Source of the DNA: an uncultured Gammaproteobacteria bacterium | GTDB lineage: Bacteria > Patescibacteriota > Patescibacteriia > Magasanikbacterales > GWA2-37-8 | Reading direction: 5' to 3' | NCBI GenBank assembly: GCA_964596525.1 | Contig: CAZQUL010000001.1 | Coordinates: 268,830 to 332,829 of the forward strand | DNA: 64,000 nt | Part shown: one piece after another, positions 4,555 to 44,313 of the stretch | How positions within the stretch are numbered: the first letter of the stretch is position 1 | Layout of the letters: each line of letters starts with the position of its first letter | Translations under genes and position numbers: made by a program | Notes under the pieces: model-generated | Seen by the model: only the letters and a program-made list of their open reading frames with translations | What the model was told of the DNA's origin: nothing | The model's database searches: none

Positions 4555-4580
4555 GTCCCTACTCCCTACGCTCCTACGAA
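4555..4580 (-). repeat. right inverted-repeat flank of the four-helix-bundle cassette
   Basis: gtccctactccctacgctcctacg. Its reverse complement, cgtaggagcgtagggagtagggac, matches the 4119..4152 flank. Confidence 0.6.
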
Positions 4581-4587
4581 CTATCTC

Positions 4588-9212: not shown

Positions 9213-9307
9213 GACATACCCCTTGGTACGTTGTTTACTGCAGTGGCCTGAATACTCAGACCATCAAGGCTTCCTTTTAATAATAAGAAAACCTTGTGAT
9301 CAAAACA

Positions 9308-9982
9308 TTACGGGCTAAAAGTAAGTGTCTGTACTATTTTTTTAATTTGATCGTACGAAAAATTCGTTTCATCAAAGACAAGTGCGGCGACGGGGAACGA
9401 AGCATTTTTTAAAGGAATCAAAACGGTAATAAAACGGGGCCTTCCCTCATTCCATTCGTAAAAAAACTGCACACCATCTCGGTATAGAGAAATCGTCCTT
9501 CGACCGAGGACAAAGGATTCAAGAAAATTAAAACTTTTGAACTTGTAAATTCCCAACGGAGATACAATGAGACTGGTTGAAGCAAATGGGGAAAAAGCTC
9601 CATCATAGGAAAAATCGGGTGATCGCGCAACTACGGTTACGCGCACCTGATCATTCATGGCAGCAGAAACATACGATTTCATATGAGGACCATCACAACG
9701 GCTTTCAGCTTTTGCGCAATCCTCAAGCCCACCCCGTATTTCTAAATCGCGAAATGGCAACCTCATCTCAAATCCCAATTCTTGGAATTCATACAAAGGC
9801 CATTCACTGACCGGACGATCTATCAGTAAATTAAAAGTTGTTGAAGATTGGACAATTACGGCGGGAGTAGAACTCGAAGAAGTCATTGTATCGGGCTGTT
9901 CGGAAGACGGTTTGGACAGACAACTAGCTCCAAGCATGAGTCCGATGAGTCCGGTTATAGCCAGCAAGTTAGTTTTTTTCAT
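9308..9982 (-). CDS. lipoprotein, function unknown
   Basis: Start at MKKTNLLAITGLIGLMLGASC (lipobox) inside ORF 9308..10078. Ser/Thr-rich linker. Confidence 0.6.
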   Translation of the reverse strand: MKKTNLLAITGLIGLMLGASCLSKPSSEQPDTMTSSSSTPAVIVQSSTTFNLLIDRPVSEWPLYEFQELGFEMRLPFRDLEIRGGLEDCAKAESRCDGPHMKSYVSAAMNDQVRVTVVARSPDFSYDGAFSPFASTSLIVSPLGIYKFKSFNFLESFVLGRRTISLYRDGVQFFYEWNEGRPRFITVLIPLKNASFPVAALVFDETNFSYDQIKKIVQTLTFSP

Positions 9983-10079
9983 AGTGTTGGTAGTGTTGTA
10001 CTTAGACTTAATATCACAGGCATTATGAAATTGTCTTAAAATATTTCTACGGTTCTTACTATGACCAATCCTCTTCATC

Positions 10080-11363
10080 TCAAAAAGCTACCACTTCTCC
10101 CAAATCACCACTCGCAATCTTTTCCTTTCGATCAAAGGTTCCTTCTACACGCCATAGAGTAGACGAGGCTCCGTAACCTTCGCGCACAATACTGAATCCT
10201 TTTGCTGGACCGCCCGATAAAACTTCTTCACGTATATACGAATAGCGCACGGATGAAGACACAAACGTGGCTGTTTTTTTGTTGGTATCGACGAGGAATG
10301 TTTTAACGATGACGGGAAGCTGCTCTTGAGTATCGATATCAATTGAAATGATATGTTGGCCAGTTGAGGGATTTAATTTCCAATCACCAACCCACGGGTA
10401 GCTACTACTCACTACCAGAGGAATTATAGCCGTACGCATAAAGTTCGTATCGTAAAGTTCGAGCCGGGGAATGGGATCTATTTCCGGAGAAGCTTCATCC
10501 CACATGGTACGAAAAGCGAGCACATGCCGAGCGTCAGAGAAACCGAGAACATCAAGCCCGCCTTCGATACTCGGAGTATTAATCGTTTTACTAAGGACTT
10601 TTCTCTGATTATCATAAACACTCCATCCTCCCCCTTCGTAGTATCCTAGCTGAAGAAGCGCAAAACGCCGGTCCATCGTCCAATCCAGGAAGCGGTATGA
10701 CAAGCACGCGCTTACGGTAAATTCAGGACGCGTGAATAATCTTTGTGAGTTCGTATTATATACTTTTCCGGTGTCGGCTATAAAAAAGAGTTCGTGAGGC
10801 TTTAAAAATTGTACGCTTCTAACCATGCCATTGGTTTTTTTGGTTTGGAAGACAATTTTTCTTTGTTTGGTTTTAAGGTTGTAGAGGACGAGAGTGTCAC
10901 CGGAAAGGTCTGTACAGTCGAGGGCCATGCCGGAAAGAGAAGCAAAATCGAGGGGTTTAGCCCGGTATGTATAGGCGAGCCATGTTTTACTAGGTGAAAG
11001 AACGAGATGACGAATAGGGAATTTTTCGTCCAAAATCTTTATCAGATGTATTGAAGATGAAATGTCCGCGCGCCAGATCGTTCTGTCTTCACTATATATG
11101 ATATTTTTTGAGGCGCCGTTAGCAGAAATAACGGTGGCCCCCGGTGGGAGCACGCGGGGGTCGGGAGTTTCAGGTATTGATGAAGGTGCGGAATCCGCTG
11201 CCGTTGCAGCAGACTCTACGGATTGAGGGAGTGGGACGGGAGGCTGAACATTACGAGGTGGGACAGACACAGAATCTCGCCCTACAAACGCGATAAAAAT
11301 ACTTATAACAACGATACCGACAAAACCTGTACCGATTAAGATAATGCGCTGTGTTAGATTCAT
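10080..11363 (-). CDS. membrane-anchored protein with a Pro-rich linker and a beta-rich extracellular domain, function unknown
   Basis: N-terminal TM segment IILIGTGFVGIVVISIFIAFV, then a P/S/A linker, then a ~330-aa hydrophilic domain. Confidence 0.6.
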   Translation of the reverse strand: MNLTQRIILIGTGFVGIVVISIFIAFVGRDSVSVPPRNVQPPVPLPQSVESAATAADSAPSSIPETPDPRVLPPGATVISANGASKNIIYSEDRTIWRADISSSIHLIKILDEKFPIRHLVLSPSKTWLAYTYRAKPLDFASLSGMALDCTDLSGDTLVLYNLKTKQRKIVFQTKKTNGMVRSVQFLKPHELFFIADTGKVYNTNSQRLFTRPEFTVSACLSYRFLDWTMDRRFALLQLGYYEGGGWSVYDNQRKVLSKTINTPSIEGGLDVLGFSDARHVLAFRTMWDEASPEIDPIPRLELYDTNFMRTAIIPLVVSSSYPWVGDWKLNPSTGQHIISIDIDTQEQLPVIVKTFLVDTNKKTATFVSSSVRYSYIREEVLSGGPAKGFSIVREGYGASSTLWRVEGTFDRKEKIASGDLGEVVAF

Positions 11364-11526
11364 AGATACAAGACGCTTGAAATGACTGGAATGACTTTAG
11401 TATACCAGCCCAACCAAAAACACCGACGCGCAGTCGATGTTTAGAGAAATTGTACAGCGTGAAAAAATGTGCGCAAGGCTTTGGTGTGGACAAGAAATAC
11501 ATGCGCAGTTACAGCTTGACAAAATG

Positions 11527-11555
11527 ACGTAAAATAGCTATACTTTGGAGTTATT
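11527..11555 (+). promoter_or_regulatory. sigma70-type promoter (TTGACA-17-TATACT)
   Basis: Consensus -35, 17-nt spacer and TATACT -10, about 80 nt upstream of the ATG at 11638. Confidence 0.5.
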
Positions 11556-11637
11556 TCTGGAGAACGATTGCTGTCTTGGGCACCTGTATCTCTGGTGTCA
11601 AAGCTCATCAACCGTTCAGACTACGGAGGAACAAACC

Positions 11638-12474
11638 ATGGGACGTGCAAACTTTTGGACCGATCAGGCTGCGAAAGAAGGTTGGAAGACGTTTCTCGCC
11701 ACCTTTCCGCACCGGCGCTTCGTCGTGGGACTCGCGCATATCGCAGCATTTCTCGCAAAGCGCGGTAGCACGTCCCTGGACTGGGATCCGTTCATTGCAA
11801 CCACACGTACTCTGGCGGACAAATACCTGGTCGTTGACACGGAAGAGGACCTGCAGTGCCACACCTTCGTGACGGAGGGCGGCACTCATACCGTGGACGA
11901 GCCCACCATGCGCGCTGCATGGGCCGGATGGTACGAAGCTTGCCGGATTCACCAGCTCTCGCGTACGTTCACCACCGACGACCTGCGTGCTGCGTATCCC
12001 AGTACGAACGTGCTCTGCCTGACGATCAACTTCGCCCGGGCATGCCTCGAGAGCCCCTTCATGCAGGGCAAGGCCGATGAGGTAGAGAGAGCGACCGTGC
12101 TGGTCGAGGATCTGCTCCGTTCGAGCTACAGGAAAGCCATTCAGCTCCCATCGCGGGAGGTCATGAGGCACCCGGAATACGTTGCGCTGGAAATGGCCGA
12201 TGCTGCGTACTGCAATCGCTGGTTCGCGCTCATTCCCTGCTGGCACGAACGCTGCGCTGACACGGCGCAGGGCCGACACGCCCACATTCTGCCGTGGGAG
12301 TGGCCGCACTGGGCCGAGCCGGAGATCGACTTTCCGACTATCCGCTCGCGGCATCAGGGCGAACGTGTCATTACCGAGCGCTTCGGCAACCGCAAGCTGG
12401 GACCAAGCGCCTTTCAGGAACTCCTGAACAGCCTGGATCGTTCCGGTCTGCCGCAGATCCTGCCGCTCCGGTAG
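11638..12474 (+). CDS. hypothetical protein (high GC, no recognisable domain)
   Basis: GGAGG RBS 8 nt upstream of the MGRANFWTDQ start. 278 aa, Trp/Cys/His-rich. Confidence 0.55.
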   Translation: MGRANFWTDQAAKEGWKTFLATFPHRRFVVGLAHIAAFLAKRGSTSLDWDPFIATTRTLADKYLVVDTEEDLQCHTFVTEGGTHTVDEPTMRAAWAGWYEACRIHQLSRTFTTDDLRAAYPSTNVLCLTINFARACLESPFMQGKADEVERATVLVEDLLRSSYRKAIQLPSREVMRHPEYVALEMADAAYCNRWFALIPCWHERCADTAQGRHAHILPWEWPHWAEPEIDFPTIRSRHQGERVITERFGNRKLGPSAFQELLNSLDRSGLPQILPLR

Positions 12475-12548
12475 CGCACCTTCCCGCCAGATATCAAGCC
12501 GAGCACTCAGTTGCTCGGTTTTCGTTTTCTTTGTACGCTAGTTGCACT

Positions 12549-13382
12549 ATGCCCTCCCCTACCCTGCGTGAACTCAGAAAATTCCAGCGAACGGTTTGGG
12601 ATTTTTATGACAAAAATAAACGCGCCTTCGCCTGGCGCGAGACGACGGATCCGTACCAGATAACGGTGTCGGAAATCATGCTGCAGCAAACGCAGACCGA
12701 GCGAGTGGCAAAAAAATTCCCGGAATTCTTGGCAGCGTTTTCGACCTGGAAAAAACTTGCCGACGCTCCGCTCCCCGACCTTTTACGCGTGTGGCAGGGC
12801 ATGGGTTACAACCGCCGCGCCATCGCGCTTCAAAAAATCGCAGTGCGCGTAGTGAACGAATTTGAAGGACAGCTTCCCAACAATCCGGAAATACTCGAAA
12901 CGTTTCCCGGCATCGGACCCAACACCGCCGGTTCCATCTGCGCCTTTGCCTTCAACGCGCCGACGGTATTCATCGAAACCAATATTCGCGCGGTATTTCT
13001 GCATCATTTTTTTGCCGATCAAACCAAGGTGCACGACAAAGAATTACTGCCGATCGTAGAAGCCGCGCTCGTTACCGAACGTGCGCGTGAATGGTACTAC
13101 GCGCTTATGGATTATGGCGTGTATCTTAAAAAACTCCACAAAAATCCCGCACGGCGCAGTGCGCACCACGCGCGACAATCCGCATTCGAAGGTTCGGACC
13201 GGCAAATCCGGAGCGGAATTTTGAAACTGTTATTAAAAATGACAGAGGCGTCGCTTGAAACCATTTTTGGAAACTTTCCCGATACCGACAACGAGCGCGT
13301 GGAGCGTTTGCTTGGACAGCTGGTACACGAAGGCTTTGTAGCGAACGAAAAAGGCATTTTTTGCATCCGTTCGGAAAAATAA
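12549..13382 (+). CDS. HhH-GPD superfamily DNA glycosylase (MutY/Nth-like N-terminal domain, no Fe-S cysteine cluster)
   Basis: ITVSEIMLQQTQTERV...GMGYNRRA...FPGIGPNTAGSICAFAF...IETNIRAV aligns with the helix-hairpin-helix and Gly/Pro-Asp region of EndoIII/MutY. No C-x6-C-x2-C-x5-C cluster at the C-terminus. No catalytic Lys in the GIGPNTA motif, so probably monofunctional. Confidence 0.7.
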   Translation: MPSPTLRELRKFQRTVWDFYDKNKRAFAWRETTDPYQITVSEIMLQQTQTERVAKKFPEFLAAFSTWKKLADAPLPDLLRVWQGMGYNRRAIALQKIAVRVVNEFEGQLPNNPEILETFPGIGPNTAGSICAFAFNAPTVFIETNIRAVFLHHFFADQTKVHDKELLPIVEAALVTERAREWYYALMDYGVYLKKLHKNPARRSAHHARQSAFEGSDRQIRSGILKLLLKMTEASLETIFGNFPDTDNERVERLLGQLVHEGFVANEKGIFCIRSEK

Positions 13383-13437
13383 AAAGGAGGCTGGAAATTC
13401 CAACCTCACTGTGGGGGCGAATATGCGCCGTAAAATG

Positions 13438-13632
13438 CTAGCGCGCGGAGAAGCTGCGGCGGGGCAGGGTTTCAACGGCCGTGATCAGCTCGTTGCAGCT
13501 ATAGCCGACGATCCCATTGATAATGAGGAATAGAAGTGCGATGCCCGCTTTGGACAGCGGGCGATTGCGCGAAAACGATTCGTCGTCAGGCCTAGACGGT
13601 TCTTTAGAAACTCGAAACGAAGACATGTACAC
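13438..13632 (-). CDS. possible small membrane protein (64 aa)
   Basis: GGAGGTG RBS 6 nt upstream of the ATG. One TM segment, AGIALLFLIINGIVGY. Confidence 0.35.
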   Translation of the reverse strand: MYMSSFRVSKEPSRPDDESFSRNRPLSKAGIALLFLIINGIVGYSCNELITAVETLPRRSFSAR

Positions 13633-13687
13633 CTCCAGGGCAGGATACTACGTGTTTTTTTGCGTTTCGTCAAGGTTTAAAGGCGCA

Positions 13688-13722
13688 AAACTAAAAGCAA
13701 ACGACCGGCGTTGAGCCGGTCG
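13688..13722 (-). terminator. rho-independent terminator
   Basis: cgaccggc-gttga-gccggtcg hairpin; a T-rich tract follows on the minus strand, downstream of the 13754 gene. Confidence 0.6.
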
Positions 13723-13753
13723 GGAGGAGCGCTCGCGTGTAGCGGCGAGCGTA

Positions 13754-14947
13754 TTAGATCTTACGGAAGACGGTGTAGTGGATGGCAAGATCCTTCGTGC
13801 GAAACGCGGCAACGGTTCGCCTGAATATCACCCGATCACCGTGACGAGGGCTTTTTTCTGTCAGCTGCCTCATGTTGTACAGAAAAATCGCCTCACCCAC
13901 GACGACGATCGCTTCGAAGATGGGCGGTCCCCCTTCATCGCCCTCAACCTTGGTGATCTTTTCTACCGTACCCACGGCACACCCTGCTTTGGCCAGCCGC
14001 CTTTCCAAATACTCCTTAACGTTAGGCGGGAAATCAGCCCATCTCATGCAGGCCGTACGATACAACCCGACGAGATCCGTTTCACGATCGAGAAGTTCAT
14101 CAATGGCCACGGCTTCGTTTGGAGTTGCGGCGTGCGAACGAAGTGCCCACAGCCACAAGAGCGGCGCTTTCGCTCCCGCACGGCGGCGGACGTTATGAAC
14201 GATCTGCCACTGCGTCTTAATCTCGAGCGAGCGCAACTGACTGATCGTAAGTGATTCGACATCATCGAGCGACTGCACCGCATGTTCGATGAGTTGGCGG
14301 GCATTTTCTCCGGAACCGAGCCCGGCTCCGATGTAATCCGGGTAGATAAGGCCAATCTCCGGATGCTTGCGGAGCGCGACCTCAAACAGCGGCACGAGCC
14401 ACTCACCGGGGAACTTGTGAAAGTCGCACTGCGGCCAGTTCTTGATAGTCTCGACGATGCAGTCGGTCTTACCGCGCTCGGGCGTGACGCTCTCGAACCT
14501 CTGGCAGACGAGCGCGAGAACATGCTGACGGGGAATGCCGGCGTGAAGCAGCGCACCGACATGCTGCGCACTGCCCCAGCGCACGAAGTATTCGTCAGCA
14601 AATTCCTTCGCCGCGGCGGGCGTGGGGAAAAGGATCTTGAACGTGCGCTTGTCCGCCATATAGATCTGGAAAACGCGCGCCGCCGGATACGATCGGATAA
14701 ACGCGAGCGGGTCGTCGATAAGACCCTTAAAGTCATGGGGAAAGCGCCAGAGCACGTCACCACCGATCGAAAGATCGTGGGCATGAGCGCGTTCATCATC
14801 GGTCCAGATAGCTTCGATCATCTCCTCAACCGACAAGCCGCCGGTGATTAAAGCATTTTCCAATCTTTCGCGGAATTCTTTGATTTCCGAAGGGTTGGTT
14901 AACACGGTGGGTTGAGGCAGGATAGGAACGCACGACGTATCGTTCAT
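13754..14947 (-). CDS. hypothetical protein (397 aa, high GC)
   Basis: GAGG RBS. Start MNDTSCVPIL inside ORF 13754..15055. No recognisable motifs. Confidence 0.55.
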   Translation of the reverse strand: MNDTSCVPILPQPTVLTNPSEIKEFRERLENALITGGLSVEEMIEAIWTDDERAHAHDLSIGGDVLWRFPHDFKGLIDDPLAFIRSYPAARVFQIYMADKRTFKILFPTPAAAKEFADEYFVRWGSAQHVGALLHAGIPRQHVLALVCQRFESVTPERGKTDCIVETIKNWPQCDFHKFPGEWLVPLFEVALRKHPEIGLIYPDYIGAGLGSGENARQLIEHAVQSLDDVESLTISQLRSLEIKTQWQIVHNVRRRAGAKAPLLWLWALRSHAATPNEAVAIDELLDRETDLVGLYRTACMRWADFPPNVKEYLERRLAKAGCAVGTVEKITKVEGDEGGPPIFEAIVVVGEAIFLYNMRQLTEKSPRHGDRVIFRRTVAAFRTKDLAIHYTVFRKI

Positions 14948-15080
14948 GATTTTACCTCTCACGTACGGGTTTACGAAGGCGGAAAAGAACGGTTTCAGCT
15001 GTCGATTTCTGCTAGCGCATAAACAAAAATCGGCAGCCAAAGTACGCGTCACCATATCACGGACTATTCGTTATGTCAAT

Positions 15081-15100
15081 CATTTATCTACTCCCTACGC
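15081..15100 (-). repeat. solo copy of the CGTAGG..GTAGGGAGTAG motif
   Basis: The plus strand reads actccctacgctccgacg, the same orientation as the right flank at 4555..4580. Confidence 0.45.
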
Positions 15101-15107
15101 TCCGACG

Positions 15108-15144
15108 TTCTATTCCCTAAAAACACAAAAGCCGTCACACGAGG
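15108..15144 (-). repeat. duplicated terminator (37-nt identical repeat, copy 1)
   Basis: ctaaaaacacaaaagccgtcacacgaggtaacggctg is identical to 16424..16460. On the minus strand it forms the gccgt..acggc hairpin plus T-run 3' of paralog A. Confidence 0.7.
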
Positions 15145-15211
15145 TAACGGCTGAGAATGAACAAAAGGGAATGAAAGTTGGAATCGAACTAAAGGCGAGA
15201 AGCGGTAGGCA

Positions 15212-16186
15212 CTACAGGTTCTCGACGAGGCAGGATCCCGTCTCGCCCATGTAGAGCGTGGTGCAGGGATCGCTCTCGAGCTGGCCGTCCTGGCGGAGGT
15301 AGGCCTTGCGGACCTGGACGTTCGCGCCGGTGCGCAGTACGGCGACCTCGTCGCCCGTACGACCCACGGTGTAGATCTTGTTGGGCGCGGCCGGAACCGT
15401 GACGCAGGTGCCCGTGGCGTTGCAGACGTTGACGTTACCACTCACGACGGTGAGGGCGATGAGGCCGAGGTAGACACGGCTCGTTCCCTTCTTCACGAAG
15501 GTGCCGCTGTCCGTCCGATCGAAGGCGTAGGGCGCGTTCCAAGAGAGGGAACGCGGGTCAGCGAGAGTCGACGGGCCCTGGACGCACACGAGGGTGGGGT
15601 CGGTCATGTCGCGCACGGCGGAGCTGCACGGGATGATCGGGGCGACGTACGGGCAGCCGCGGCGGTTCGGATCCGGCGTGGCACCCTGCGCCTCGTCCGG
15701 GCACTGGTCGTCGGCATCCAGCACCCCATCCATGTCGCGATCCTGGGGCATCGGGGTCACGATGGGCATGTCGTTCTTGATGCCCAGGACGACCTCGTCG
15801 ATCTTCTTGAAGGTCCCCTCGAAGCCCGGCGTCGCCAGGTAGGCGCACCAGGCCGGAATGACCTGACCCTGCTCGATCCGGTAGACATACCGGATGTTAT
15901 GCTGGGCGGTGAGCTTCTCCAGACACTGGACCTGGAGCATCTTGTCACCATCCGGGCAGACGACCGCTTCGAACATGATGTCGGCTCCGTAGAAGCTGAT
16001 CCAGCCGCCGGTCTTGGCAGCCTCGGTGCCAGCCTTGTCCATCTTTTCCTGGATGTACATGCCGGCCAGGGAGCTGGGCTTGCCCTCGGTGCAGTAGCTG
16101 ATCTCGCGCTCCGACAGCAGTCCGCAGCCGGACACGAAGGAAGCAAGGCCAACAGCGGCGACCACAAGGCCCTTGGAATTCTTCAT
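15212..16186 (-). CDS. lipoprotein with a thrombospondin-type-3 / OmpA-like calcium-binding repeat (paralog A)
   Basis: AAGGAG RBS. Lipobox LASFVSGC. DRDMDGVLDADDQCPDEAQGATPDPNRRGCP matches DxDxDGxxDxxDxCP. Cys-rich. Paralogous to 16518..17522 and 43193..44119. Confidence 0.75.
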   Translation of the reverse strand: MKNSKGLVVAAVGLASFVSGCGLLSEREISYCTEGKPSSLAGMYIQEKMDKAGTEAAKTGGWISFYGADIMFEAVVCPDGDKMLQVQCLEKLTAQHNIRYVYRIEQGQVIPAWCAYLATPGFEGTFKKIDEVVLGIKNDMPIVTPMPQDRDMDGVLDADDQCPDEAQGATPDPNRRGCPYVAPIIPCSSAVRDMTDPTLVCVQGPSTLADPRSLSWNAPYAFDRTDSGTFVKKGTSRVYLGLIALTVVSGNVNVCNATGTCVTVPAAPNKIYTVGRTGDEVAVLRTGANVQVRKAYLRQDGQLESDPCTTLYMGETGSCLVENL

Positions 16187-16274
16187 CTGGACACTCCTTT
16201 TCCTGTTGTCTAGGCTCTGTTGAGCCGTTTTAGAGAACTTCTTCGCACTGGCTTCACCAGGCGATTACAAGTAT

Positions 16275-16304
16275 CAGGATACCATATTTTTGTCACTTTG
16301 TCAA
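16275..16304 (-). promoter_or_regulatory. sigma70-type promoter (TTGACA-17-TATCCT)
   Basis: Minus-strand TTGACA at 16299-16304; shares the tgtcaaga(t/a)ataacgg core with the promoter of paralog B. Confidence 0.45.
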
Positions 16305-16423
16305 GATAATAACGGAATGGGTTTATGGTCTTTTTTCTCTGCAAATAAAGATGGTATTTATATAAAGAATCGACCAACTGTGGTCGATTTGTAGTGTGCG
16401 CCCGCTCATCTCGCATCCTTACT

Positions 16424-16460
16424 TTAAAAACACAAAAGCCGTCACACGAGGTAACGGCTG
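16424..16460 (-). repeat. duplicated terminator (copy 2)
   Basis: Identical 37-mer 3' of paralog B. Confidence 0.7.
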
Positions 16461-16517
16461 GCAATGCAAAAGAGAATTCGAATCGGAATCAGAATGTACG
16501 TCGGTAGACGATGAGAG

Positions 16518-17522
16518 CTACAGTCCCGACGGGCGGCAGGAGTCGGTGATCATGTTGTCCAGCGTGGTGCAGACCATGCTCTTGGTCACGCCATCCTCGT
16601 AGTAGGCGATCCGGAACTTGGTACCGGCGACGTCCGGGCGGACCGAGACGTACTCGTCACCCGGACGACCGATGGCGAAGATGGTGTTGGCCTTGTTCGT
16701 GAACGAGCTGCAGACGCCGTTCGCGGAGCAGGCCTGGAAGGAGCCGCTCAGGAAGGAGCCGCCGCTGTCGAGGACGATGATGCCGGCGATGATGCGCTTG
16801 CCCTGGACCATCTGCCAGGTGCCGCTCGCGGCCTGATCGAAGGCGTAGGGCGCGGTCCACGAGGTGGTGCGCAGCACGCCGATCTTGGAGGGGTTCTGCA
16901 CGCAGGCGCGCGAGCCGTCATTGCTCCAGCCGAGCGCGCTGCACGTCTCGATGGGCATGGTCGTGCCCGGGCAGCCGCGGCGCATTTGGTCCGGGTTGGC
17001 ACCGGCCACGGTGTCGGGGCAGACGTCGTCCTGATCGCGCACGCCGTCCTGGTCACGATCCGGGCAGCCCTGGAGGGTGCCGGCCGTCATCGGGCACTGG
17101 TCGTGCTCACCGAGGTATCCGTCCTTGTCCGGGTCCGCGGCCGGGTTCATCGGATCGAGCGAGGCGATGACCGTCTGGATGTCCTGGTCGTTCGGGTGGG
17201 CCAGGCACGAGGTCGGCGCGCTCTCACCCTTCGTCACGCGCCGCACGAGGGGCGAGTACTCCGGGGTCGTACGGTTCCAGAGGCAGGCGCGCTGGTCGAG
17301 GACGTTCTTGTCCGAGCAGCACGCGACCGCGCCGGTCTTCATGGTCCAGACGCAGTAGCCGCCATCGGTGGCGCAGGCGGCGTTGCACTCCTTGGCGCTC
17401 TTCTCGTAGGCCGCGCGCTCGGGAGCGTTCCCGGGCATGTCGCAGAGATCAGCGGTGCAGCCATTCAGAGCCACCATGAAAAGCACGGTGAAAAGGCACG
17501 CAAGGCTTCGAGCGATGAACAT
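16518..17522 (-). CDS. lipoprotein with two TSP3-type calcium-binding repeats (paralog B)
   Basis: GAGAGG RBS. LACLFTVLFMVALNGC. DPDKDGYLGEHDQCP and DRDQDGVRDQDDVCPDTVAGANPDQMRRGCP. The C-terminal half aligns with paralog A (WTAPYAFD..SGTW...VLDSGGSF). Confidence 0.75.
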   Translation of the reverse strand: MFIARSLACLFTVLFMVALNGCTADLCDMPGNAPERAAYEKSAKECNAACATDGGYCVWTMKTGAVACCSDKNVLDQRACLWNRTTPEYSPLVRRVTKGESAPTSCLAHPNDQDIQTVIASLDPMNPAADPDKDGYLGEHDQCPMTAGTLQGCPDRDQDGVRDQDDVCPDTVAGANPDQMRRGCPGTTMPIETCSALGWSNDGSRACVQNPSKIGVLRTTSWTAPYAFDQAASGTWQMVQGKRIIAGIIVLDSGGSFLSGSFQACSANGVCSSFTNKANTIFAIGRPGDEYVSVRPDVAGTKFRIAYYEDGVTKSMVCTTLDNMITDSCRPSGL

Positions 17523-17610
17523 GGAGAACCTCTCTTTCTTTCTCTCTGTTTTTCAAAAGGCGTTGATGGGCGCCGTAGATTTATGCCGTTTATGGCAACT
17601 ACGACGCGCC

Positions 17611-17639
17611 ATTATAGTCTTTTTTTATGATTATGTCAA
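17611..17639 (-). promoter_or_regulatory. consensus sigma70 promoter (TTGACA-17-TATAAT)
   Basis: Minus strand reads cTTGACAtaatcataaaaaaagacTATAATggcg, about 80 nt upstream of the paralog B start. Confidence 0.6.
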
Positions 17640-17676
17640 GAATATAACGGGATAAATGTTGCGGGAAGCACCAATT

Positions 17677-17702
17677 TAAAAACGGCCGGTAGGGCCGTTT
17701 TG
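17677..17702 (-). terminator. rho-independent terminator
   Basis: acggcc-ggtag-ggccgt hairpin with T-runs on both strands, 3' of the gene ending at 17712. Confidence 0.6.
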
Positions 17703-17711
17703 GCTAAAAAA

Positions 17712-19271
17712 CTACATTCTCCAGGCGACCATAAGGCCACGCCATGCCTTGACCAGCTCTTCGCGGCCATCGTGGCGGGCACGCTGAGAAGCATGGCGCA
17801 GCGCCTGGCGCAAACGTGTTCCAAAAGGATAGTGGCGCCGCAGCACCTTGAGCACCTCCCCCACCTCATCGACAAACTCGAGAGCCCGGGTGAGGTTGGA
17901 ATTATGCTCGGAGATTCCCAAGAGCCCATCAGCCAAGAAGCCTTCCAGATCGACACGCAGGGCTTCAGTGACAATCTCGGGGCCGAGCTCGGTGGCTTTG
18001 GCACTGGCGAACCACCCGATACCAATAGCGATATCGCGCTTCCAACGAGGCGTTTCGGGCTTGTCGGCGTAGGGGCTGCCGGGCATAAGGAGCGGCGCGA
18101 CGCTAAGGTAATACATCACGCGGCGGCGGATGGCGGCGGCGTTCAATTCTGGATCAACGCCGGGCCGCTTGCGCACCTCGTTGAGTATCTCGTGCAGCTC
18201 CGGGTTGGTAAGGAGCGTTTCTGCCGTCGTGATGGGCTCTACCGGGACCTCGGCGATGAGGCGCTCGACGATCCGGTTGCACTGCTCGGGTGTCAGATCG
18301 GCTGCAGAGCGCAGCAGGTCTTTGGTGGAAAGAGCGACAGGAGCAGATTCGGTTCTTTCTGCCGATGCCACCAGGGGGGCAAACACGCCCATATCAAGTG
18401 CACGTGGGTGGTAGATGGTGATAAAATTCCGCGTCGCATGAGGCATTCCCTCGGTCCATTCACCGCGCAACGCATGGAACTGCCTGCCGGCGATAACACC
18501 CTTCACACGCCAGGGGGTTTCATCGAGCGCACAGCACGCGTCCTGCAGATCCGTAAGTGTCACCGTATCACTGAGCACGTAATTATAGGTAAAGACGCCG
18601 TGGTTATGATCTTCTCTTGAAGAGGACGGGTGCGGGTCGTGGTGATGATGCGCGCAGTGCGCGATGCGGCACTGCAATTCCTTCGCTACCGGACGCTCCA
18701 AAAGGAGCTCGGACGGCAATCCGTGGCCCGAGGGGATGAGAAACAAAGGAATGCCCTGGGCATGGTGCGCAACGTATTCCACCATTTCCTCAATCGCAGC
18801 ATCGGTAATCGCGGCGACCGACGAAGGAAACTTGGTGAAGCCGACGCCGAGCGTGGCAGCCCGGAGCTGGCTAGGAACAATCGCGCCGAGCTCGCGGTTG
18901 GCAGCGAAGTGCCGCACATCCACGAGGGTGATGACAAGCGGATCAAGACCAACGCTCCGAAGCACGGACGGCGCTTCGTCACCCGCGATAAAACCATAGG
19001 GCTCGACAATGAGCCATTCGTAGCGACCGGAAGCAGCGATGTGGCGAAAAACCCGCCGCGCAGACTCCTCATCACGGCAACCAAAGCAGCCGCTGTTGAG
19101 GGTGACGATATCGGCACTGCCAACGAGCGCGGTCGCGTCAGTGGTAGCGCGCGTCCCATCGTCGTTGCAGACGACAGCTACGGTTCCTGGCAGGACGTTG
19201 TGGTTCAGAGTTTCACGAATGAAAGTCGTTTTGCCCGCTCCGGGCGGGCCGAGAATGAGCAGCGTGCGCAT
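17712..19271 (-). CDS. COG0523 (CobW/ZigA/YjiA-type) metal-chaperone GTPase, long form with His-rich segment and ~200-aa C-terminal extension
   Basis: P-loop GPPGAGKTT. GCFGC (CxCC metal-binding motif). HCAHHHHDPHPSSSREDHNHG His-rich stretch. CobW_C-like region, then an extra domain of unknown fold. Confidence 0.8.
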   Translation of the reverse strand: MRTLLILGPPGAGKTTFIRETLNHNVLPGTVAVVCNDDGTRATTDATALVGSADIVTLNSGCFGCRDEESARRVFRHIAASGRYEWLIVEPYGFIAGDEAPSVLRSVGLDPLVITLVDVRHFAANRELGAIVPSQLRAATLGVGFTKFPSSVAAITDAAIEEMVEYVAHHAQGIPLFLIPSGHGLPSELLLERPVAKELQCRIAHCAHHHHDPHPSSSREDHNHGVFTYNYVLSDTVTLTDLQDACCALDETPWRVKGVIAGRQFHALRGEWTEGMPHATRNFITIYHPRALDMGVFAPLVASAERTESAPVALSTKDLLRSAADLTPEQCNRIVERLIAEVPVEPITTAETLLTNPELHEILNEVRKRPGVDPELNAAAIRRRVMYYLSVAPLLMPGSPYADKPETPRWKRDIAIGIGWFASAKATELGPEIVTEALRVDLEGFLADGLLGISEHNSNLTRALEFVDEVGEVLKVLRRHYPFGTRLRQALRHASQRARHDGREELVKAWRGLMVAWRM

Positions 19272-19346
19272 GTTCAGCTCCTTGGCACGATAGTAAGAAA
19301 GATCGGCTACCGGTGATTCTTATCACAAGCAGCGGTCTCTTGCCAA

Positions 19347-19952
19347 CTAGCCCGCCATATCCTCCCATTTTGCCACGCGGCCATCGCGGATATAAAACTC
19401 ATGCTTGGACCATTCCTGCAAAAACGTTTCATCATGCTCGAGCGCGCGCACTGCCGGATGATTGATGAGCGTGGACATATCGGCAGCTCCGGGAAACGCA
19501 GCAGAGTCGGTAAGTTGCATGCCGCTCGTACGAGCCAGATACTCGTTTAAAAACGTAAAACGCTTAGTGCATATATAGCCGGGTTTTGAACAGTGGGTAC
19601 GAAAATCAGCGATCGTCGCGATTTCTTGCGGGGTACCGCGGTAAGCTTCACGTTTGTAGTTCATCCAGACGGCAGGCGTGTCGTACTGCATCGCGTCGCC
19701 CAGGAGTTTGAGGCGCGCTGTAAGTGAAGCGAGGCGTCGTATGAGCATATCACGATGGACGGATGGCACAGGTGATGCCAAAACTGCCGCAAGCGTCGTG
19801 TTGGCGGTTTGCGCTTCGAGCGAGGCAGCGGAAAGAAGTGCGGTTTCAACCATGGTTTTCTCACGTTCATACGCTGCGTATACTGCGTAAAGGCGGAGCA
19901 CTTCTTCGGTCAGACGCTCAGTTGAAAGCGGTTGTGAGTGTTTCAAATCCAT
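19347..19952 (-). CDS. hypothetical protein inside the metal operon (201 aa)
   Basis: Tightly packed between the two COG0523 genes (gaps of 1 and 75 nt). No recognisable domain. Confidence 0.55.
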   Translation of the reverse strand: MDLKHSQPLSTERLTEEVLRLYAVYAAYEREKTMVETALLSAASLEAQTANTTLAAVLASPVPSVHRDMLIRRLASLTARLKLLGDAMQYDTPAVWMNYKREAYRGTPQEIATIADFRTHCSKPGYICTKRFTFLNEYLARTSGMQLTDSAAFPGAADMSTLINHPAVRALEHDETFLQEWSKHEFYIRDGRVAKWEDMAG

Positions 19953-19953
19953 A

Positions 19954-20877
19954 TCAGGGAAAAAAGCGCTGAATAAGTTCCGGGGTTACGCTGGGGCCAA
20001 GCGCAACTACAACAGCTTTAACCGACCGTGTGGTGATGTCTATATCATAATGATTGGCGGTCGCCTCGAGGTGCGCCATGGTACCGTCAACAAGCGGCAG
20101 GTATCCTTTCAGGCGGTCGGGACGGGTGGCGGCGTCGCTTAGCATGGCACGGACAGCGTCCTCTAGGGCCGCGCGCGAAGCAGCATGAGACGGATAATGA
20201 ATCGCATAACGCACTGCATGTGCCGCCGCGCGCGGCAACGCCAGGATGGCAGCCAAACGCCGCTCGACCGCGCTTGACGATGCTTCGGCCAATTTTTCCC
20301 AGGGTGCTCGACCGCGTTCTACGGCCCAGACTGACCCTGGTCCGAGCAGATTCTCAACACTATCCTGATACGTAGCCACGCGCTCCGGACCAATCTTATC
20401 GATTTTGTGCACGACAACGATATCGGAACTCAGAATATCGGCTTTTCTTTTTGCAGAAACATCTTCTACCGAAACAACCAGCGGATCGAGAACGAAAACG
20501 CTGTGCTTGAGTTCGAACTGCAGCACAAACGTGGGCGACAGATAGAGCTTGGTAAGGAGTTCGGCTGCAGAAGCGACGCCGGTGGTTTCGATGATAACAG
20601 GTTTAGCCCATTTTTTTTCGGCAATAGCGGCGAGAACTTTTTCTAAATCTTCTTCGGACGAACAGCAGACGCACCCGCCGGTAATGGCAGCGAGCTCACT
20701 GTCATGCGTATCTTCGGCCAACGTAAGCTGGTCGATATTCTCGGGCGCGAATTCATTTTCGATGATAAACGAGCCCCGGAACGGAGCGGTTTTGAGAAGT
20801 TCTTTGAGCACAGTGGTTTTGCCACTACCGAGCGTGCCGTGAAAAAGATACAAAGGAATACGCGACATACAAGACAT
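19954..20877 (-). CDS. COG0523 (CobW-family) metal-chaperone GTPase, short form
   Basis: P-loop GTLGSGKTT. GGCVCCS (CxCC). Dxx(G) region and a CobW_C-like tail. Confidence 0.8.
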   Translation of the reverse strand: MSCMSRIPLYLFHGTLGSGKTTVLKELLKTAPFRGSFIIENEFAPENIDQLTLAEDTHDSELAAITGGCVCCSSEEDLEKVLAAIAEKKWAKPVIIETTGVASAAELLTKLYLSPTFVLQFELKHSVFVLDPLVVSVEDVSAKRKADILSSDIVVVHKIDKIGPERVATYQDSVENLLGPGSVWAVERGRAPWEKLAEASSSAVERRLAAILALPRAAAHAVRYAIHYPSHAASRAALEDAVRAMLSDAATRPDRLKGYLPLVDGTMAHLEATANHYDIDITTRSVKAVVVALGPSVTPELIQRFFP

Positions 20878-20879
20878 GA

Positions 20880-21701
20880 TCAGGGTTTTTTCTTGAACAT
20901 AATGTACGAATTGGCCATCAATTCCGGATCATAGGGCTTAACCGTGAGCTGGATTTTGAGCGGTCCGTAATCTTTTTCCGGTACTGGCTGGTACATGAGC
21001 GTCTTAAGATCATGGGCCGTGCGGGCAAGAACAACCGCTCCCATGGGCGCTGTCCGGGCGATGCGGCGCAGAAGACGGATTTTCTCACGCTCATGTTCGC
21101 CAACAAGCGATGCGGCGACGATGACATCATAGGGCTGATAGTCGAACGTGAACGCATCGGCCTTAATGAAGCGTACTTTGGTACTATAGCCAATCGTTTT
21201 TATAAACGCACGTCCTTGGTGAAAGGCTGCTTCTTCGATCTCGAGCGTGTCGACGCGCACACCGAAATAGTCGGCCATAAGAACTGCAGTGAGGGGTAGC
21301 GGACCAGCGCCCACAAATAAACAGCGTCGGGCCGGACGCCCGCCCAAAAGAATTTTAAGATCATCGAAGCTGATGGAGGCGGTACGGGCAAAAGCTTGAT
21401 AATAGGTGTAACCGCGCAAAGCAGCGCGGCCCGAGGTTCTGGATGCGAGAATTTTTTTTGACCAGTACCATTCGGAGAGCGTTTCAATATGCGCGGAAAT
21501 GGCACGAAAGCGGGGTGCAAGGCGCTCTATGACCGGCCGCTCCAGAAGCGCGCGGACGATTTCCGGCCGGCGTTCCAAGCATACCTTCCGGAAACGAAAA
21601 AACAGGCGATCGGCAACGTGAGGCAGAGCGTCGTGCGCCGCACCAAGCTGCGCGCATAAAGAGATAAGCACACGCTCCAAACGATCGACCGCCTGTTTCA
21701 T
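20880..21701 (-). CDS. nicotianamine-synthase-like (NAS/CntL-like) SAM-dependent aminobutyryl transferase
   Basis: RCLFVGAGPLPLTAVLMA matches the hallmark VGSGPLPLTS motif of plant and archaeal NAS and bacterial CntL. Size (273 aa) fits archaeal/bacterial NAS. Confidence 0.65.
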   Translation of the reverse strand: MKQAVDRLERVLISLCAQLGAAHDALPHVADRLFFRFRKVCLERRPEIVRALLERPVIERLAPRFRAISAHIETLSEWYWSKKILASRTSGRAALRGYTYYQAFARTASISFDDLKILLGGRPARRCLFVGAGPLPLTAVLMADYFGVRVDTLEIEEAAFHQGRAFIKTIGYSTKVRFIKADAFTFDYQPYDVIVAASLVGEHEREKIRLLRRIARTAPMGAVVLARTAHDLKTLMYQPVPEKDYGPLKIQLTVKPYDPELMANSYIMFKKKP

Positions 21702-21705
21702 ATAG

Positions 21706-22311
21706 TTAGTGTTCCGGAATAAACATCCCTACCGCCCAACCGACAAGAATGACGGCGCCTAACGCAATGAATTTCACCGCGGTCGGCACGCGCTTGCCAG
21801 AGTGCTTGATGATGATACCGGCTTCGATATAGGCGGTAGCAAAAAGCGCTGCCGCTGCCGCACCGGCGGCACCGACATGCACTGCTTCGGCGTAGGTCTG
21901 TGCTACCGGACCAATAAGCACGCCACCCGCAACGCCGGCAATAACGCCCAAACCGATCCGCGCCGCAAACCAGGCCCTTCCGGCCCGGCGCACTTCGCGG
22001 ACGATATGCCGCACAAAAACCAATTCGTGAGCAATGATCGCCACAACGAGTACGGGGTTTTTGAGGGCGAGCGCGGCACCCAGGAGGACCGCATCGCTCA
22101 CATGATGCATCTGCCACACGCGGTGATGGAGCGTTGGGCGCGACGGATGCTCGTGATGATCGTCATGGTCATCAGGTACGATCAAAAACGACACGACGAA
22201 AAACGTGACAGCGAAGATGAACGGATGGTGATGGGTTTCTCGCAGCAATACGCCGCCGCCAAGCGCACTTAACGCTGCAGCGCCGAAAGGAAGAAGGTAG
22301 GTGGTAAACAT
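21706..22311 (-). CDS. His-rich polytopic membrane protein, putative divalent-metal transporter (family uncertain)
   Basis: About 6 TM segments. THHHP at TM1. Loop PDDHDDHHEHPSRPTLHHRVWQMHH. It is the first gene of the operon. No canonical ZIP (HNxxDG/HExxHE) or HupE motifs. Confidence 0.5.
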   Translation of the reverse strand: MFTTYLLPFGAAALSALGGGVLLRETHHHPFIFAVTFFVVSFLIVPDDHDDHHEHPSRPTLHHRVWQMHHVSDAVLLGAALALKNPVLVVAIIAHELVFVRHIVREVRRAGRAWFAARIGLGVIAGVAGGVLIGPVAQTYAEAVHVGAAGAAAAALFATAYIEAGIIIKHSGKRVPTAVKFIALGAVILVGWAVGMFIPEH

Positions 22312-22317
22312 GAGAAT

Positions 22318-22347
22318 ATGTTAATGCAACTGTGTTGCGTTTGTCAA
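22318..22347 (-). promoter_or_regulatory. promoter with palindromic operator in the spacer (TTGACA - TGCAAC aca GTTGCA - TAACAT), leaderless start
   Basis: Minus strand reads cTTGACAaacgcaacacagttgcatTAACATattctcATG. The 5-3-5 inverted repeat gcaac-aca-gttgc sits between -35 and -10. No RBS; the start codon is about 6 nt after the -10. Confidence 0.45.
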
Positions 22348-28680: not shown

Positions 28681-28786
28681 TCATTGCGAGGAGGTACGAC
28701 GAAGCAATCCCTCGGTAATTCAGAGCTCACTCTTCTATCAAGGAGATTGCTTCGTCGCTCGTCTAACTCGCTCCTCGCAATGACGA
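28681..28786 (+). repeat. ~105-bp palindromic intergenic repeat, copy A
   Basis: Outer arms tcattgcgaggag / ctcctcgcaatga; inner arms cgacgaagcaatccc / ggagattgcttcgtcg. Similar to 36373..36476 (inverted) and 37965..38073. Confidence 0.75.
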
Positions 28787-36301: not shown

Positions 36302-36372
36302 AATCGCTAGATTTAAAGAAAGAAAAGAAAAAAGCGTTGTTTTCTACAACGCTTTTTTGTATCTGGATTTAT

Positions 36373-36476
36373 CGTCATTGCAAGGAAGGAGTTAGACGGC
36401 GGACGAAGCAATCCCTATGTAGTTTAGAGCTCACTCCGCTATCAAGGGGATTGCTTCGCTATGCTCGCAATGACGA
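36373..36476 (-). repeat. ~105-bp palindromic repeat, copy B (inverted relative to copies A and C)
   Basis: cgtcattgcaaggaaggagttagacggcggacgaagcaatccc...ggggattgcttcgctatgctcgcaatgacg. gagttagac here is the reverse complement of gtctaactc in copies A and C. Confidence 0.75.
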
Positions 36477-36479
36477 AGT

Positions 36480-37440
36480 TTTTAGCTTCTCATACCTGGA
36501 AAATTCCTACAAAAACAGTAAACCCCAGAAGTGCGCAGGCTTCTGGGGTTGGCATTTCGTGGTTCTGGGCACGGGCCCGTGTCCAGAGCAGACGAAATGA
36601 GGTAGTGCCGCATCATGCGGCAGGTAAACTTTGTCGTCACAAAGGGGGGGTGATGTAGCGACGTAGGACACATCGCCAGATCTCCCCGCCTTTGTGGCGG
36701 TGATCCAGGCCGTCACCACTGCCAAGGAGCGACCTCGGCGCTTATCGCTGAGCGAACTCTTGATAAGCTAAATTGAGGCTTCCAAAGCGGTAGTTTACGG
36801 CGGACTGGCCTTCTCTCAAAAAGAGCAATCACTGAAGCCTGGTAGCTTCTCATGCTCTTTTTTGCTGAGGGTTACAGTTCCCGGAGGGTTGCAGGATGAA
36901 AAACCAAAGATCGGCGGTCTGGCGGGTAATGGCCCGCCACACGAGGCGAGAATGTTCGTACGTAGAAGCACAGCGTGTCGACGTCCGGACGCATCTTTTC
37001 TCTTCGGGTTGCCTAAGAGGAAAAGAGTGAGTTGGTCCTGGACTATGAAAGAGCGGGACACGCGAGAAAAATCTCGTAGGTGCGGTTCTTGTGGTTTGGC
37101 AGTTCCCAAGAAAGCTTATGCCGGTCGTAACTCAGAGAGTTGACTGGGCACTTTCACCGCTCCGCTCGTGAGTGAGTCGAAGGGTAGCGCGAGGCTTAGA
37201 GGGAAATGCACCAAGAAGGTGACACCCAGGTGCGGGTACGAAGGTCTCGTTGCTGCATCTGTGGACTGGATGGCTTTGATGTACCACGCGAGTCAAAAGT
37301 ACGAGCGCGACACGTGATCAGCGTGGGCGCATGATTCTGGAAACGACGCGTTTCGCAGAAAAACCGCAGGTGGTAAAGCGTATCAAAGCGGCCATGTGTA
37401 CATCCTGGCCGGGAGAAGGTCAGCCTGTCATGTAAAGAAC
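36480..37440. other. GC-rich, highly structured non-coding segment (candidate large ncRNA or degenerate element) with no credible ORF
   Basis: Perfect hairpin ccccagaag-N8-cttctgggg at 36523-36548. Palindromes cacgggcccgtg and tgccgcatcatgcggca. Only short, compositionally random ORFs. Contains a tmRNA-5'-like string at 37325-37350. Confidence 0.4.
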
Positions 37441-40055: not shown

Positions 40056-40266
40056 ACAGGTACGAAGTGATGATAAAAGGTGGTTTTGAGGACTTTTCTG
40101 ATTATACGAGTCGTAGATTAGCTAAAAAGCGATGTTTTGGCAACTACTATTTGAATATGAGGGTGGAAAGATGATTATCCCGTCGTATTATTGACATAAT
40201 CAGTAAAATCATATCTACTAGCTGCTGATAGTGGGTTCCTTTGAGAAAAATAAGGAGGAAGCGACC

Positions 40267-43095: not shown

Positions 43096-43124
43096 TTGAC
43101 AAAATTGCTAAAATAAACTAATTT
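43096..43124 (+). promoter_or_regulatory. sigma70-type promoter (TTGACA-17-TAATTT)
   Basis: Upstream of the third TSP3-lipoprotein paralog. Confidence 0.45.
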
Positions 43125-43192: not shown

Positions 43193-44119
43193 ATGATGAT
43201 TACTCGGATGATGTTGGCTGCTTTCGTTGTTTTTTACCTGTTTCTTTCGGGCTGCGGAGTAAGCACCATCTGTCACGAAGGCAAGGCAACCGAAGGGTTT
43301 GGCCGCAAGTATGAAGACCGGCTAACCCAGGGCATCAGCCAGTGCGCCACGACTGGCGGTTGGGTAGCCTACGACACGTGCTGCCCTGATGGCGAGAAGG
43401 ACGCGCAGATTGCGTGCCTGGAGCAGAAGCGGCAAGAGGGAAATGAGTATGTCCTGCGCATCGAGCTGGGGCAGACCATCCTGCCATTCTGCGAGTTCAT
43501 GGGAACCGCGGCCGGGAAGGCCTATGTCAAGACCATCGACGTCATCACCGGCATCAAGACCGACACGCCCATCGTCATCCCGACGCCAAACGACCGCGAC
43601 ATGGACAGTGTCGTCGATGCCGACGACCTGTGCCCGGACGAGGCGCAGGGCGCGATGCCCGACCCCAACAGGAAGGGCTGCCCGACTCCGACCACCCCCG
43701 CCGTCCGCTGCAGCGCCCTCGTCCGCGACATGGCAGATCCCACCACGGTCTGTGTCCAGGACCCCTCCACCTCCAGCACGATCCGCACCTACACCTGGGA
43801 CCAGGGAATCTTTGACCAGCCCGAGACGGGCATCATGGTGAAGAAGGGCACTGGCCGTGTCTTCAGCGGCATCCTCGTTCTCGACAACGGCGGTTCGTTC
43901 TGGACAGGCACCTTTGAGCTCTGTACCGTCCATAACGTCTGCACCGCCATCACCGGCAAGGACAAGACCGGCTACGCCGTGGGCCGACCGGGTGACTACT
44001 ACACCTCCGTCAAGGTCGGCTCGAGCGCCCAGGTCCGCTTGGTCTACATCCAGCCTAACGGCACCCGCCAGAGCGACCCCTGCGCCTTGATGAATGGGGT
44101 CTGCACTCCGCCGCAGTAG
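43193..44119 (+). CDS. lipoprotein with TSP3-type calcium-binding repeat (paralog C)
   Basis: AAAGGAGG RBS. MMITRMMLAAFVVFYLFLSGCG. DRDMDSVVDADDLCPDEAQGAMPDPNRKGCP. Aligns over its whole length with paralogs A and B. Confidence 0.75.
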   Translation: MMITRMMLAAFVVFYLFLSGCGVSTICHEGKATEGFGRKYEDRLTQGISQCATTGGWVAYDTCCPDGEKDAQIACLEQKRQEGNEYVLRIELGQTILPFCEFMGTAAGKAYVKTIDVITGIKTDTPIVIPTPNDRDMDSVVDADDLCPDEAQGAMPDPNRKGCPTPTTPAVRCSALVRDMADPTTVCVQDPSTSSTIRTYTWDQGIFDQPETGIMVKKGTGRVFSGILVLDNGGSFWTGTFELCTVHNVCTAITGKDKTGYAVGRPGDYYTSVKVGSSAQVRLVYIQPNGTRQSDPCALMNGVCTPPQ

Positions 44120-44313
44120 TAGGGTGCGCTTGCTCGGGACCATTGTGTTTATGACCCGCAATCCTTTGGGAAGCGGGTTTTATGATACAGAATTTCGTGG
44201 GCGTGCCGGCTCTGGGATTAGCTGAGATAGAATAAAAATAGGTTTTTTACGGCGTCGTAGCGCCCTTTGCCAACGAAGCGCCTTCGCGCGCTTCTTTGTT
44301 GTACACACAGTCC

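Follow-up and report, generated by a model that had tools for sequence, protein, structure and literature searches.

A Lineage-Restricted Family of Six Predicted Lipoproteins with TSP3-like Repeats in a Bacterium Related to Candidatus Magasanikbacteria

Results

Three paralogous genes, here named A, B and C, were analyzed in a 64,000-nucleotide stretch of DNA (contig CAZQUL010000001.1, positions 268,830 to 332,829; the whole stretch is referred to below as the window). We consider it probable that these genes, together with three further copies in the same genome, encode an orphan family of secreted, lipid-anchored, disulfide-rich proteins that carry a Ca2+-type repeat, descend from old duplications, share a promoter box and have a surface binding or adhesion role. 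The window carries dnaA, dnaN and parAB. The host appears to be a Patescibacteria (candidate phyla radiation, CPR) bacterium related to Candidatus Magasanikbacteria; the nearest named homologues of the window DnaA belong to the Candidatus Magasanikbacteria / Patescibacteria group (62-66% identity), and other relatives reach 75-77%.

Gene A (protein P0001; 15212..16186, minus strand) encodes a predicted 324-amino-acid prolipoprotein. Its layout, taken from the open reading frame, the family alignment and an AlphaFold2 (AF2) model, comprises a signal peptide with the lipobox VSG|C21, an alpha/beta N-domain, one TSP3-like repeat and a beta-rich C-domain. Gene B (P0002; 16518..17522, minus strand) lies in tandem with A and encodes a predicted prolipoprotein of 334 amino acids with 20 cysteines and two TSP3-like repeats. 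Gene C (P0004; 43193..44119, plus strand) stands apart. Its mechanically called reading frame opens at a TTG codon at 43160 and yields 319 amino acids, while the ATG at 43193 is preceded by the ribosome binding site aaaggagg. This ATG is most likely the true start, giving a 308-amino-acid prolipoprotein, and it is in the 308-residue form that C is held in the protein collection. The three proteins can be aligned end to end with 35-42% amino acid identity (34-43% in a second pairwise comparison), and the family proteins contain 13-20 Cys and 21-32 Asp each. A preliminary description of this DNA had proposed three lipoproteins of 319-334 amino acids, two of them in tandem, that form a paralogous family in which a TSP3-type acidic repeat accompanies an N-terminal half rich in Cys and a conserved, beta-rich C-terminal half. 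All of these proposals are upheld, and the reading frames were found where they had been placed.

A profile built from the three paralogues was scored exhaustively against 1.84 billion representative proteins. Full-length matches were obtained only with P0001, P0002, P0004, P0005, P0006 and P0032. The other matches, 514 at E<=0.001, were all restricted to the repeat. Each of the six proteins is a singleton at 90% identity, and all six are encoded on one contig of 1,343,778 bp, where P0032, P0006 and P0005 form a tandem triple ahead of the genes for RNase Y, HU and SecG (locus L059). A single-protein search of 5.8 billion clusters retrieved the query itself only, and an alignment search of the same collection added only TSP3/OmpA matches. 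A scan of genome contigs, in a collection that lacks the source genome, likewise gave repeat-level matches only, mostly in Myxococcota. Neither the rest of the window nor 36 kb from a relative yielded further members. Two other lipoproteins of the window (40267-40821 and 42391-43017) were tried as family relatives and rejected (hhalign probability <1%). By these searches, the family is a lineage-restricted orphan present in six copies in one small genome, and the paralogue count bears out its initial characterization as prominent there.

The lipoboxes of the six paralogues read VSGC, LNGC, LSGC, VSGC, AIGC and LSGC, with the Gly and Cys (G20-C21 of the six-way alignment) invariant; the Asn at position -2 of the B lipobox is atypical. 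The combination of a hydrophobic signal peptide and a lipobox that marks lipoproteins of the Lgt/LspA pathway is thus present in the family. The window encodes LspA (signal peptidase II, Peptidase_A8) at 1409-1909; a gene for Lgt was not seen within its 64 kb.

The TSP3-like repeat of A is encoded at 15650..15742 on the minus strand (DRDMDGVLDADDQCPDEAQGATPDPNRRGCP, residues 149-179) and that of C at 43592..43684 on the plus strand (DRDMDSVVDADDLCPDEAQGAMPDPNRKGCP). The repeats of B occupy 16968..17135 on the minus strand and consist of a canonical copy (16968-17060, residues 155-185) and a degenerate one (17061-17135, residues 130-154). The DxDxDGxxDxxDxCP...GCP pattern is therefore found, as first described, in one or two copies per protein. 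Each of the six paralogues carries the motif, including the acidic ligand series of TSP_3 (DxDxDGxxDxxD, then C), and D149, D151, D153, D160, C162, P163 and C178 are invariant.

Profile searches gave a mixed picture. With the Pfam TSP_3 model (PF02412), A scored 9.8, B 18.0 and P0005 22.3 bits, all under the gathering threshold of 25, and no match was obtained for C, P0006 and P0032. In the reverse direction, the family profile matched proteins that Pfam labels TSP_3 and OmpA with E-values down to 1e-35; among the proteins it matched, those with 4-19 repeats do exceed the Pfam TSP_3 threshold. It also aligned repeat by repeat with the OmpA family protein of PDB entry 5wtl (E 9.4e-9). The NCBIfam TraB model gave a local match in the repeat region (1.9e-10), and NF053612 (PA1041 family) gave weak local matches over the repeat (E 0.0027-0.32, 11-18 bits versus a cut-off of 250). 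Two outcomes had been named beforehand as speaking against a TSP3 assignment, failure of the repeat against TSP3 or calcium-binding profiles and membership of a known enzyme family. The first came out mixed, as just described, and no enzyme family matched the family proteins.

In the account of Dai et al. (2017) given in PMC12045341, Ca2+ binding by the TSP3 repeats of bacterial OmpA proteins is dependent on a disulfide within the repeat. We accept "TSP3-like Ca2+-binding repeat" as a working description for the putative module in the present family; formal Pfam membership is not reached by single proteins. The epithet "OmpA-like" is a different matter. The OmpA domain (PF00691) is absent from all six proteins at both E<=1 and E<=0.01, and the likeness to OmpA-family proteins is confined to the repeat, which resembles their linker, so this label should be dropped. 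A literature search for thrombospondin repeats in Patescibacteria returned nothing relevant.

An earlier AF2 model from three sequences was too poor for use (predicted local distance difference test score, pLDDT, of 51). The model based on the six-sequence alignment contains an alpha/beta N-domain (residues 30-140, pLDDT about 85), a low-confidence linker whose fold is not resolved (residues 141-199) and an all-beta C-domain (residues 200-320, pLDDT about 80). Foldseek searches of PDB and BFVD with this model gave no match with E<0.1 for either flanking domain, and Pfam and NCBIfam gave no match outside the repeat. The two flanking domains are thus apparently new. Mean pairwise identity among the paralogues is 25% in the N-domain, 55% in the repeat and 31% in the C-domain. 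Cysteines invariant across the six copies number six in the C-domain, two in the repeat and three or more in the N-domain; those in the C- and N-domains suggest that both are disulfide-braced extracytoplasmic domains.

Age of the Duplications and Origin of the Shared Terminator

The preliminary description interpreted A and B as products of a recent segmental duplication that copied promoter, gene and terminator jointly, with control elements that have not yet diverged. What speaks for this is the tandem arrangement of the genes with a period of 1307-1318 nt, a common promoter motif and identical terminators. The coding sequences tell otherwise. Among the paralogues, pairwise identity is 23-43% at the protein level and 43-60% at the DNA level. 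A and B share 34% of amino acids and 53% of nucleotides, and A is closer to the distant C (43% protein identity) than to its tandem neighbour. The proportion of synonymous differences (pS) among the paralogues is 0.44-0.74 (0.44 for A-B), which is the saturation level for genes whose GC content at third codon positions (GC3) is near 0.9. The proposed dN/dS calculation was not informative, as both pS and its nonsynonymous counterpart pN are saturated given the GC3 bias and the resulting values are uninterpretable.

We therefore used a codon-sharing test, in which the number of identical codons at identical amino acids is compared with random draws from the codon usage of each gene. Of 10 pairs, 9 showed no departure from expectation (z between -1.1 and +1.5). 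The A-B pair showed a small excess (69 observed versus 57.6 expected, z = 2.6). Since identity is low and codon sharing is at chance level, the duplications should be regarded as ancient, and the paralogues appear to be old duplicates saturated at synonymous sites. The near-identity of whole units and the low synonymous divergence that mark a recent tandem duplication are both missing from A and B. The claim of recent duplication is already contradicted by this evidence, and we give it almost no credence.

The intrinsic terminator of A (15118..15153, minus strand) has a 9-bp stem, AGCCGTTAC/GTGACGGCT, followed by UUUUGUGUUUUU. It is identical at 36 of 36 positions to that of B (16425..16460, minus strand), where the likeness reaches to 16474 (50 nt at 90%, repeat D2); the common sequence has the form AGCCGTTACC...GGCT. 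The identical pair noticed at the outset is thus real, although it measures 36 nt and the interval first given for A, 15108-15144, was displaced by about 10 nt. A 35-mer from the terminator has two matches in the window versus 0 expected, and a 29-mer had no match in Joint Genome Institute (JGI) metagenome contigs. When the A and B units are aligned, identity reaches 95-100% in the terminator window and is 45-78% in all other parts; the terminator is the sole identical segment. The terminator of C (44154..44182, plus strand; ACCCGC...GCGGGU UUUU) has no sequence relation to this pair. Those of the three L059 genes are also unrelated in sequence, and only A and B share one. Hairpins followed by U-runs were called after each of A, B and C by a terminator scan and by folding.

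Given the divergence of the coding sequences, the 36/36 terminator identity cannot be a remnant of the duplication that created the genes. It may instead reflect a later, local event. One option is a short gene-conversion tract between the tandem neighbours, to which the A-B codon excess would lend weak support. Another is that the A unit was inserted or replaced by recombination at the terminator, which would be left as a flanking direct repeat.

As expected, short-read unitigs of the source runs (L001, L057 and L058) have ends inside the terminator repeat, at 15124, 16431 and 16454. Just past the A terminator, at 15088-15120, lies one copy of a 33-nt repeat (TTAGGrrATAGnnCGTnGGAGCGTAGGGAGTAG, 85% identical). 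The second copy, at 4559-4591, is found where the alpha gene of ribonucleotide reductase has its stop codon; the alpha-beta intergenic gap of the reductase is about 480 nt. Four look-alike hairpins of the form GAAGCGC-N4-6-GCGCTTCTTT were found within 2.5 kb around gene C (43059-43085, ~44268-44292, 44880-44902 and 45549-45572), standing behind different small lipoprotein genes. Because this look-alike family recurs four times around C, besides the A/B pair, the genome seems prone to local reuse of terminator sequences.

Promoters and a Shared Upstream Box

Each of A, B and C has a promoter and a terminator of its own, in agreement with the separate transcription units originally proposed. The predicted promoter of A (16276..16315, minus strand) consists of the box CCGTTATTATC, TTGACA, a 17-nt spacer and a TG-extended TATCCT (10/12 consensus positions). 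That of B (17611..17650, minus strand) has the box CCGTTATATTC, TTGACA, 17 nt and TATAAT, and matches the consensus at 12/12 positions. The motif CCGTTATWWTCTTGACA has exactly two matches in the window versus 0.01 expected. The motif reported for these two promoters is accordingly genuine, though the strings are TGTCAAGATAATAACGG and TGTCAAGAATATAACGG, that is, 17 nt with two variable positions and not 16 nt with one. The predicted promoter of C (43096..43124, plus strand; TTGACA, 17 nt, TAATTT) has no more than TATCTTGACAAA in common with that of A, and the CCGT box is missing from it. The idea that C is a third copy with the same control elements therefore holds for a partial promoter block and fails for the terminator.

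The promoter of a 184-amino-acid lipoprotein gene that is unrelated to the family (40267-40821) lies at 40175..40208 on the plus strand (TTATCCCGTCGTATTATTGACATAATCAGTAAAA). Both the box and the -35/spacer block of the B promoter recur in it, 34 nt at 85% identity (repeat I4). The promoters can thus no longer be described as co-duplicated with the genes, and the presence of the block ahead of an unrelated gene is a further point against recent duplication. The element yCCGTynTAyTn abuts the -35 hexamer, always at the same spacing, in A and B, in two L059 genes (E and F) and in the gene at 40267. Because the box precedes an unrelated lipoprotein gene, it would be a shared regulatory element of a lipoprotein regulon rather than a trace of duplication.

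In run SRR11567520, but not in SRR11567528, a unitig (the end of L058) breaks at 17639, the first base of the B -35 hexamer, which hints at another locus or variant with the same 30-nt promoter core. At 44923-44945, ahead of the lipoprotein gene at 45096, a perfect palindrome, TCAAGAT-A-ATCTTGA, lies over the back-to-back -35 hexamers of divergent promoter-like sites.

The promoter spacers contain A-runs of 4-7 nt. Such tracts, the conserved flanks around very diverged coding sequences and the occurrence of a multigene lipoprotein family in a reduced genome would all fit variable surface antigens of the Mycoplasma Vlp/Vsa kind, with flanks that serve as recombination handles or spacer homopolymers that switch expression. 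Several observations make us regard this as very improbable. Over A and B, the assemblies of the two sequencing runs match the window at 100% identity. The longest tract, A7, is short for slippage, and the terminator is common to A and B only. The coding sequences contain no in-frame tandem repeats, and neither an invertase nor inverted repeats flanking the promoters were found. The long homopolymer, invertible promoter or in-frame repeats that characterize Vlp/Vsa-type phase variation are thus missing from the family. A mechanism resembling a diversity-generating retroelement or phase variation was also considered and rejected, as neither a template/variable repeat pair nor tandem repeats were found.

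Genomic Context

Upstream of the tandem pair, a putative metal homeostasis cluster (17712-22347, minus strand) encodes a hypothetical protein, a nicotianamine-synthase-like (NAS-like) protein, CobW, another hypothetical protein and a CobW-like protein. Its promoter, TTGACA-18-TAACAT, has the palindrome GCAACacaGTTGC in the spacer. The ATG lies about 7 nt past the -10 hexamer, and the mRNA may therefore be leaderless.

The position of A and B directly downstream of this cluster (17712-22311, with two CobW-type GTPases and the NAS-like enzyme) raises the question of whether they are extracytoplasmic metal binders that serve it, for example in zinc economy, and the high Cys and Asp content of the proteins would suit such a role. 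A terminator and separate promoters, however, lie between the cluster and A and B. Co-regulation through the spacer palindrome was considered and rejected, as GCAACacaGTTGC is missing from the A and B promoters. The other four paralogues, moreover, stand in unrelated contexts, beside MurF-like and RNase Y genes, and most invariant cysteines come in even sets per module, with two in the repeat and six in the C-domain, a pattern expected of disulfides. A metal-handling function thus strikes us as improbable.

In a relative with 76% DnaA identity, the flanking M23 peptidase and Polysacc_synt genes adjoin each other, and the block that occupies ~9300-22300 of the window is absent there (comparison with L060, 1-1400). 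At this site, the ~13-kb block with A, B and the metal cluster is therefore lineage-specific. The same comparison shows the dUTPase-to-Pyr_redox block to be inverted and displaced relative to dnaN. Elsewhere in the window, an intergenic hairpin repeat of ~89 nt (GACGAAGCAATCCC...GGGATTGCTTCGTC) occurs at 28697-28785, 36370-36489 and 37985-38073 in both orientations, with 62-89% identity. It matched nothing at the Rfam gathering score and could be an element resembling miniature inverted-repeat transposable elements or repetitive extragenic palindromes, or a small RNA.

Base Composition

The family stands out in GC3, with values of 0.89 for P0032 (part), 0.88 for A, 0.91 for B, 0.83 for C, 0.77 for P0005 and 0.65 for P0006. 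All other genes read have values of 0.37-0.72, among them HU (0.60) and trigger factor (0.58). The unusually high GC3 is shared by a tandem pair of small lipoprotein genes (44377-44841 and 45096-45503; GC3 of 0.78 and 0.82), which are weak paralogues of each other (25% identity, E 7e-6).

The raised GC3 could stem from a foreign high-GC origin or from GC-biased conversion. In the former case, the family or its repeat module would have come from a high-GC diderm donor, for example one of the Myxococcota, and then been amplified, with the GC3 spread recording stages of amelioration. The best repeat matches are indeed Myxococcota OmpA-like genes, and A and B lie in the block missing from the syntenic site of the relative. 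On the other hand, the likeness to myxobacterial proteins spans about 31 amino acids only, no full-length homologue exists elsewhere among the representatives searched, promoters and terminators are native in style, and GC-biased gene conversion among the paralogues could raise GC3 as well. We consider foreign origin unlikely, though worth keeping in mind.

Discussion

The results are best accommodated by the following model. The members of the family would consist of a lipoprotein signal peptide, a ~110-amino-acid alpha/beta N-domain that has no detectable relatives, 1-3 TSP3-like repeats and a ~135-amino-acid all-beta C-domain. Each of the six copies (the tandem A and B, the solitary C and the tandem triple at L059) would be monocistronic, with a strong σ70-type promoter and an intrinsic terminator. 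The proteins would be displayed on the outer side of the cell membrane, where the Ca2+-loaded acidic repeat would keep two binding domains apart as a rigid spacer. Judged by motif and topology, their function is likely calcium-stabilised surface binding or adhesion, and they may have diversified for, e.g., contact with a host or matrix in an episymbiotic lifestyle.

Several points weigh against this interpretation. No single family protein reaches the Pfam TSP_3 gathering score. The structural model was built on six sequences only and found no fold match, so "binding domain" amounts to a guess. What is said here of Ca2+ binding, lipidation, disulfides and surface exposure is predicted from sequence. 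The CCGT box, inspected over about 72 kb of this genome, could be an organism-wide feature of extended promoters. Gene conversion at the A/B terminators is one candidate, and sequence-specific selection on the terminator or 3′ untranslated region may account for their identity. Finally, the high GC3 of the family (0.65-0.91) is left unexplained by the account that we favour.

A bolder synthesis can be imagined, in which the six genes are interchangeable expression cassettes of the host-contact apparatus of a CPR episymbiont. They would combine a calcium module borrowed from a high-GC diderm, possibly of the host lineage, with two new binding folds. The box and terminators would act as switch and recombination handles that generate diversity, and the raised GC3 would be the footprint of recombination or foreign origin. 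We offer this as a speculation with little chance of being right in full.

CPR/Patescibacteria rely on cell-cell contact, and their surface proteins are almost wholly uncharacterised. The present finding is descriptive and concerns one genome, and the function is proposed. It offers concrete candidates for testing in the form of six lipoproteins that bear a recognisable Ca2+ motif, two domains that are apparently new and a box that perhaps marks a lipoprotein regulon. It also illustrates that a control element, here the terminator, can outlast its gene in conservation, so that identical flanks are weak proof of recent duplication.

Two kinds of system to which the family can be compared are already known, TSP3-repeat-bearing bacterial envelope proteins and multigene lipoprotein families. 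The former include PF02412 proteins, 5wtl and the linker of Myxococcus TraB, with which the family shares DxDxDGxxDxxDxCP followed by a second Cys (GCP) about 16 residues on. As in TSP3-repeat OmpA proteins, the repeat would serve as an interdomain linker. Unlike those proteins, the family has only 1-3 repeats, is predicted to be lipid-anchored, lacks both the OmpA peptidoglycan-binding domain and a beta-barrel, and belongs to a CPR bacterium. To our knowledge, CPR bacteria have no outer membrane. The PA1041-family anchor lipoprotein (NF053612) is likewise a lipoprotein with a TSP3-like stretch, but the alignment covers the repeat only, and the present family has no OmpA-like C-terminal domain. 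The surface lipoproteins of Mycoplasma (Vlp/Vsa) and Borrelia bear no sequence or fold relationship to the family. They are repetitive or helical, whereas the proteins described here would have Cys-rich globular domains, and we found no evidence of switching machinery. What the family has in common with them is its organization, as lineage-specific, highly diverged paralogues that are partly in tandem, have their own promoters and presumably act at the cell surface.

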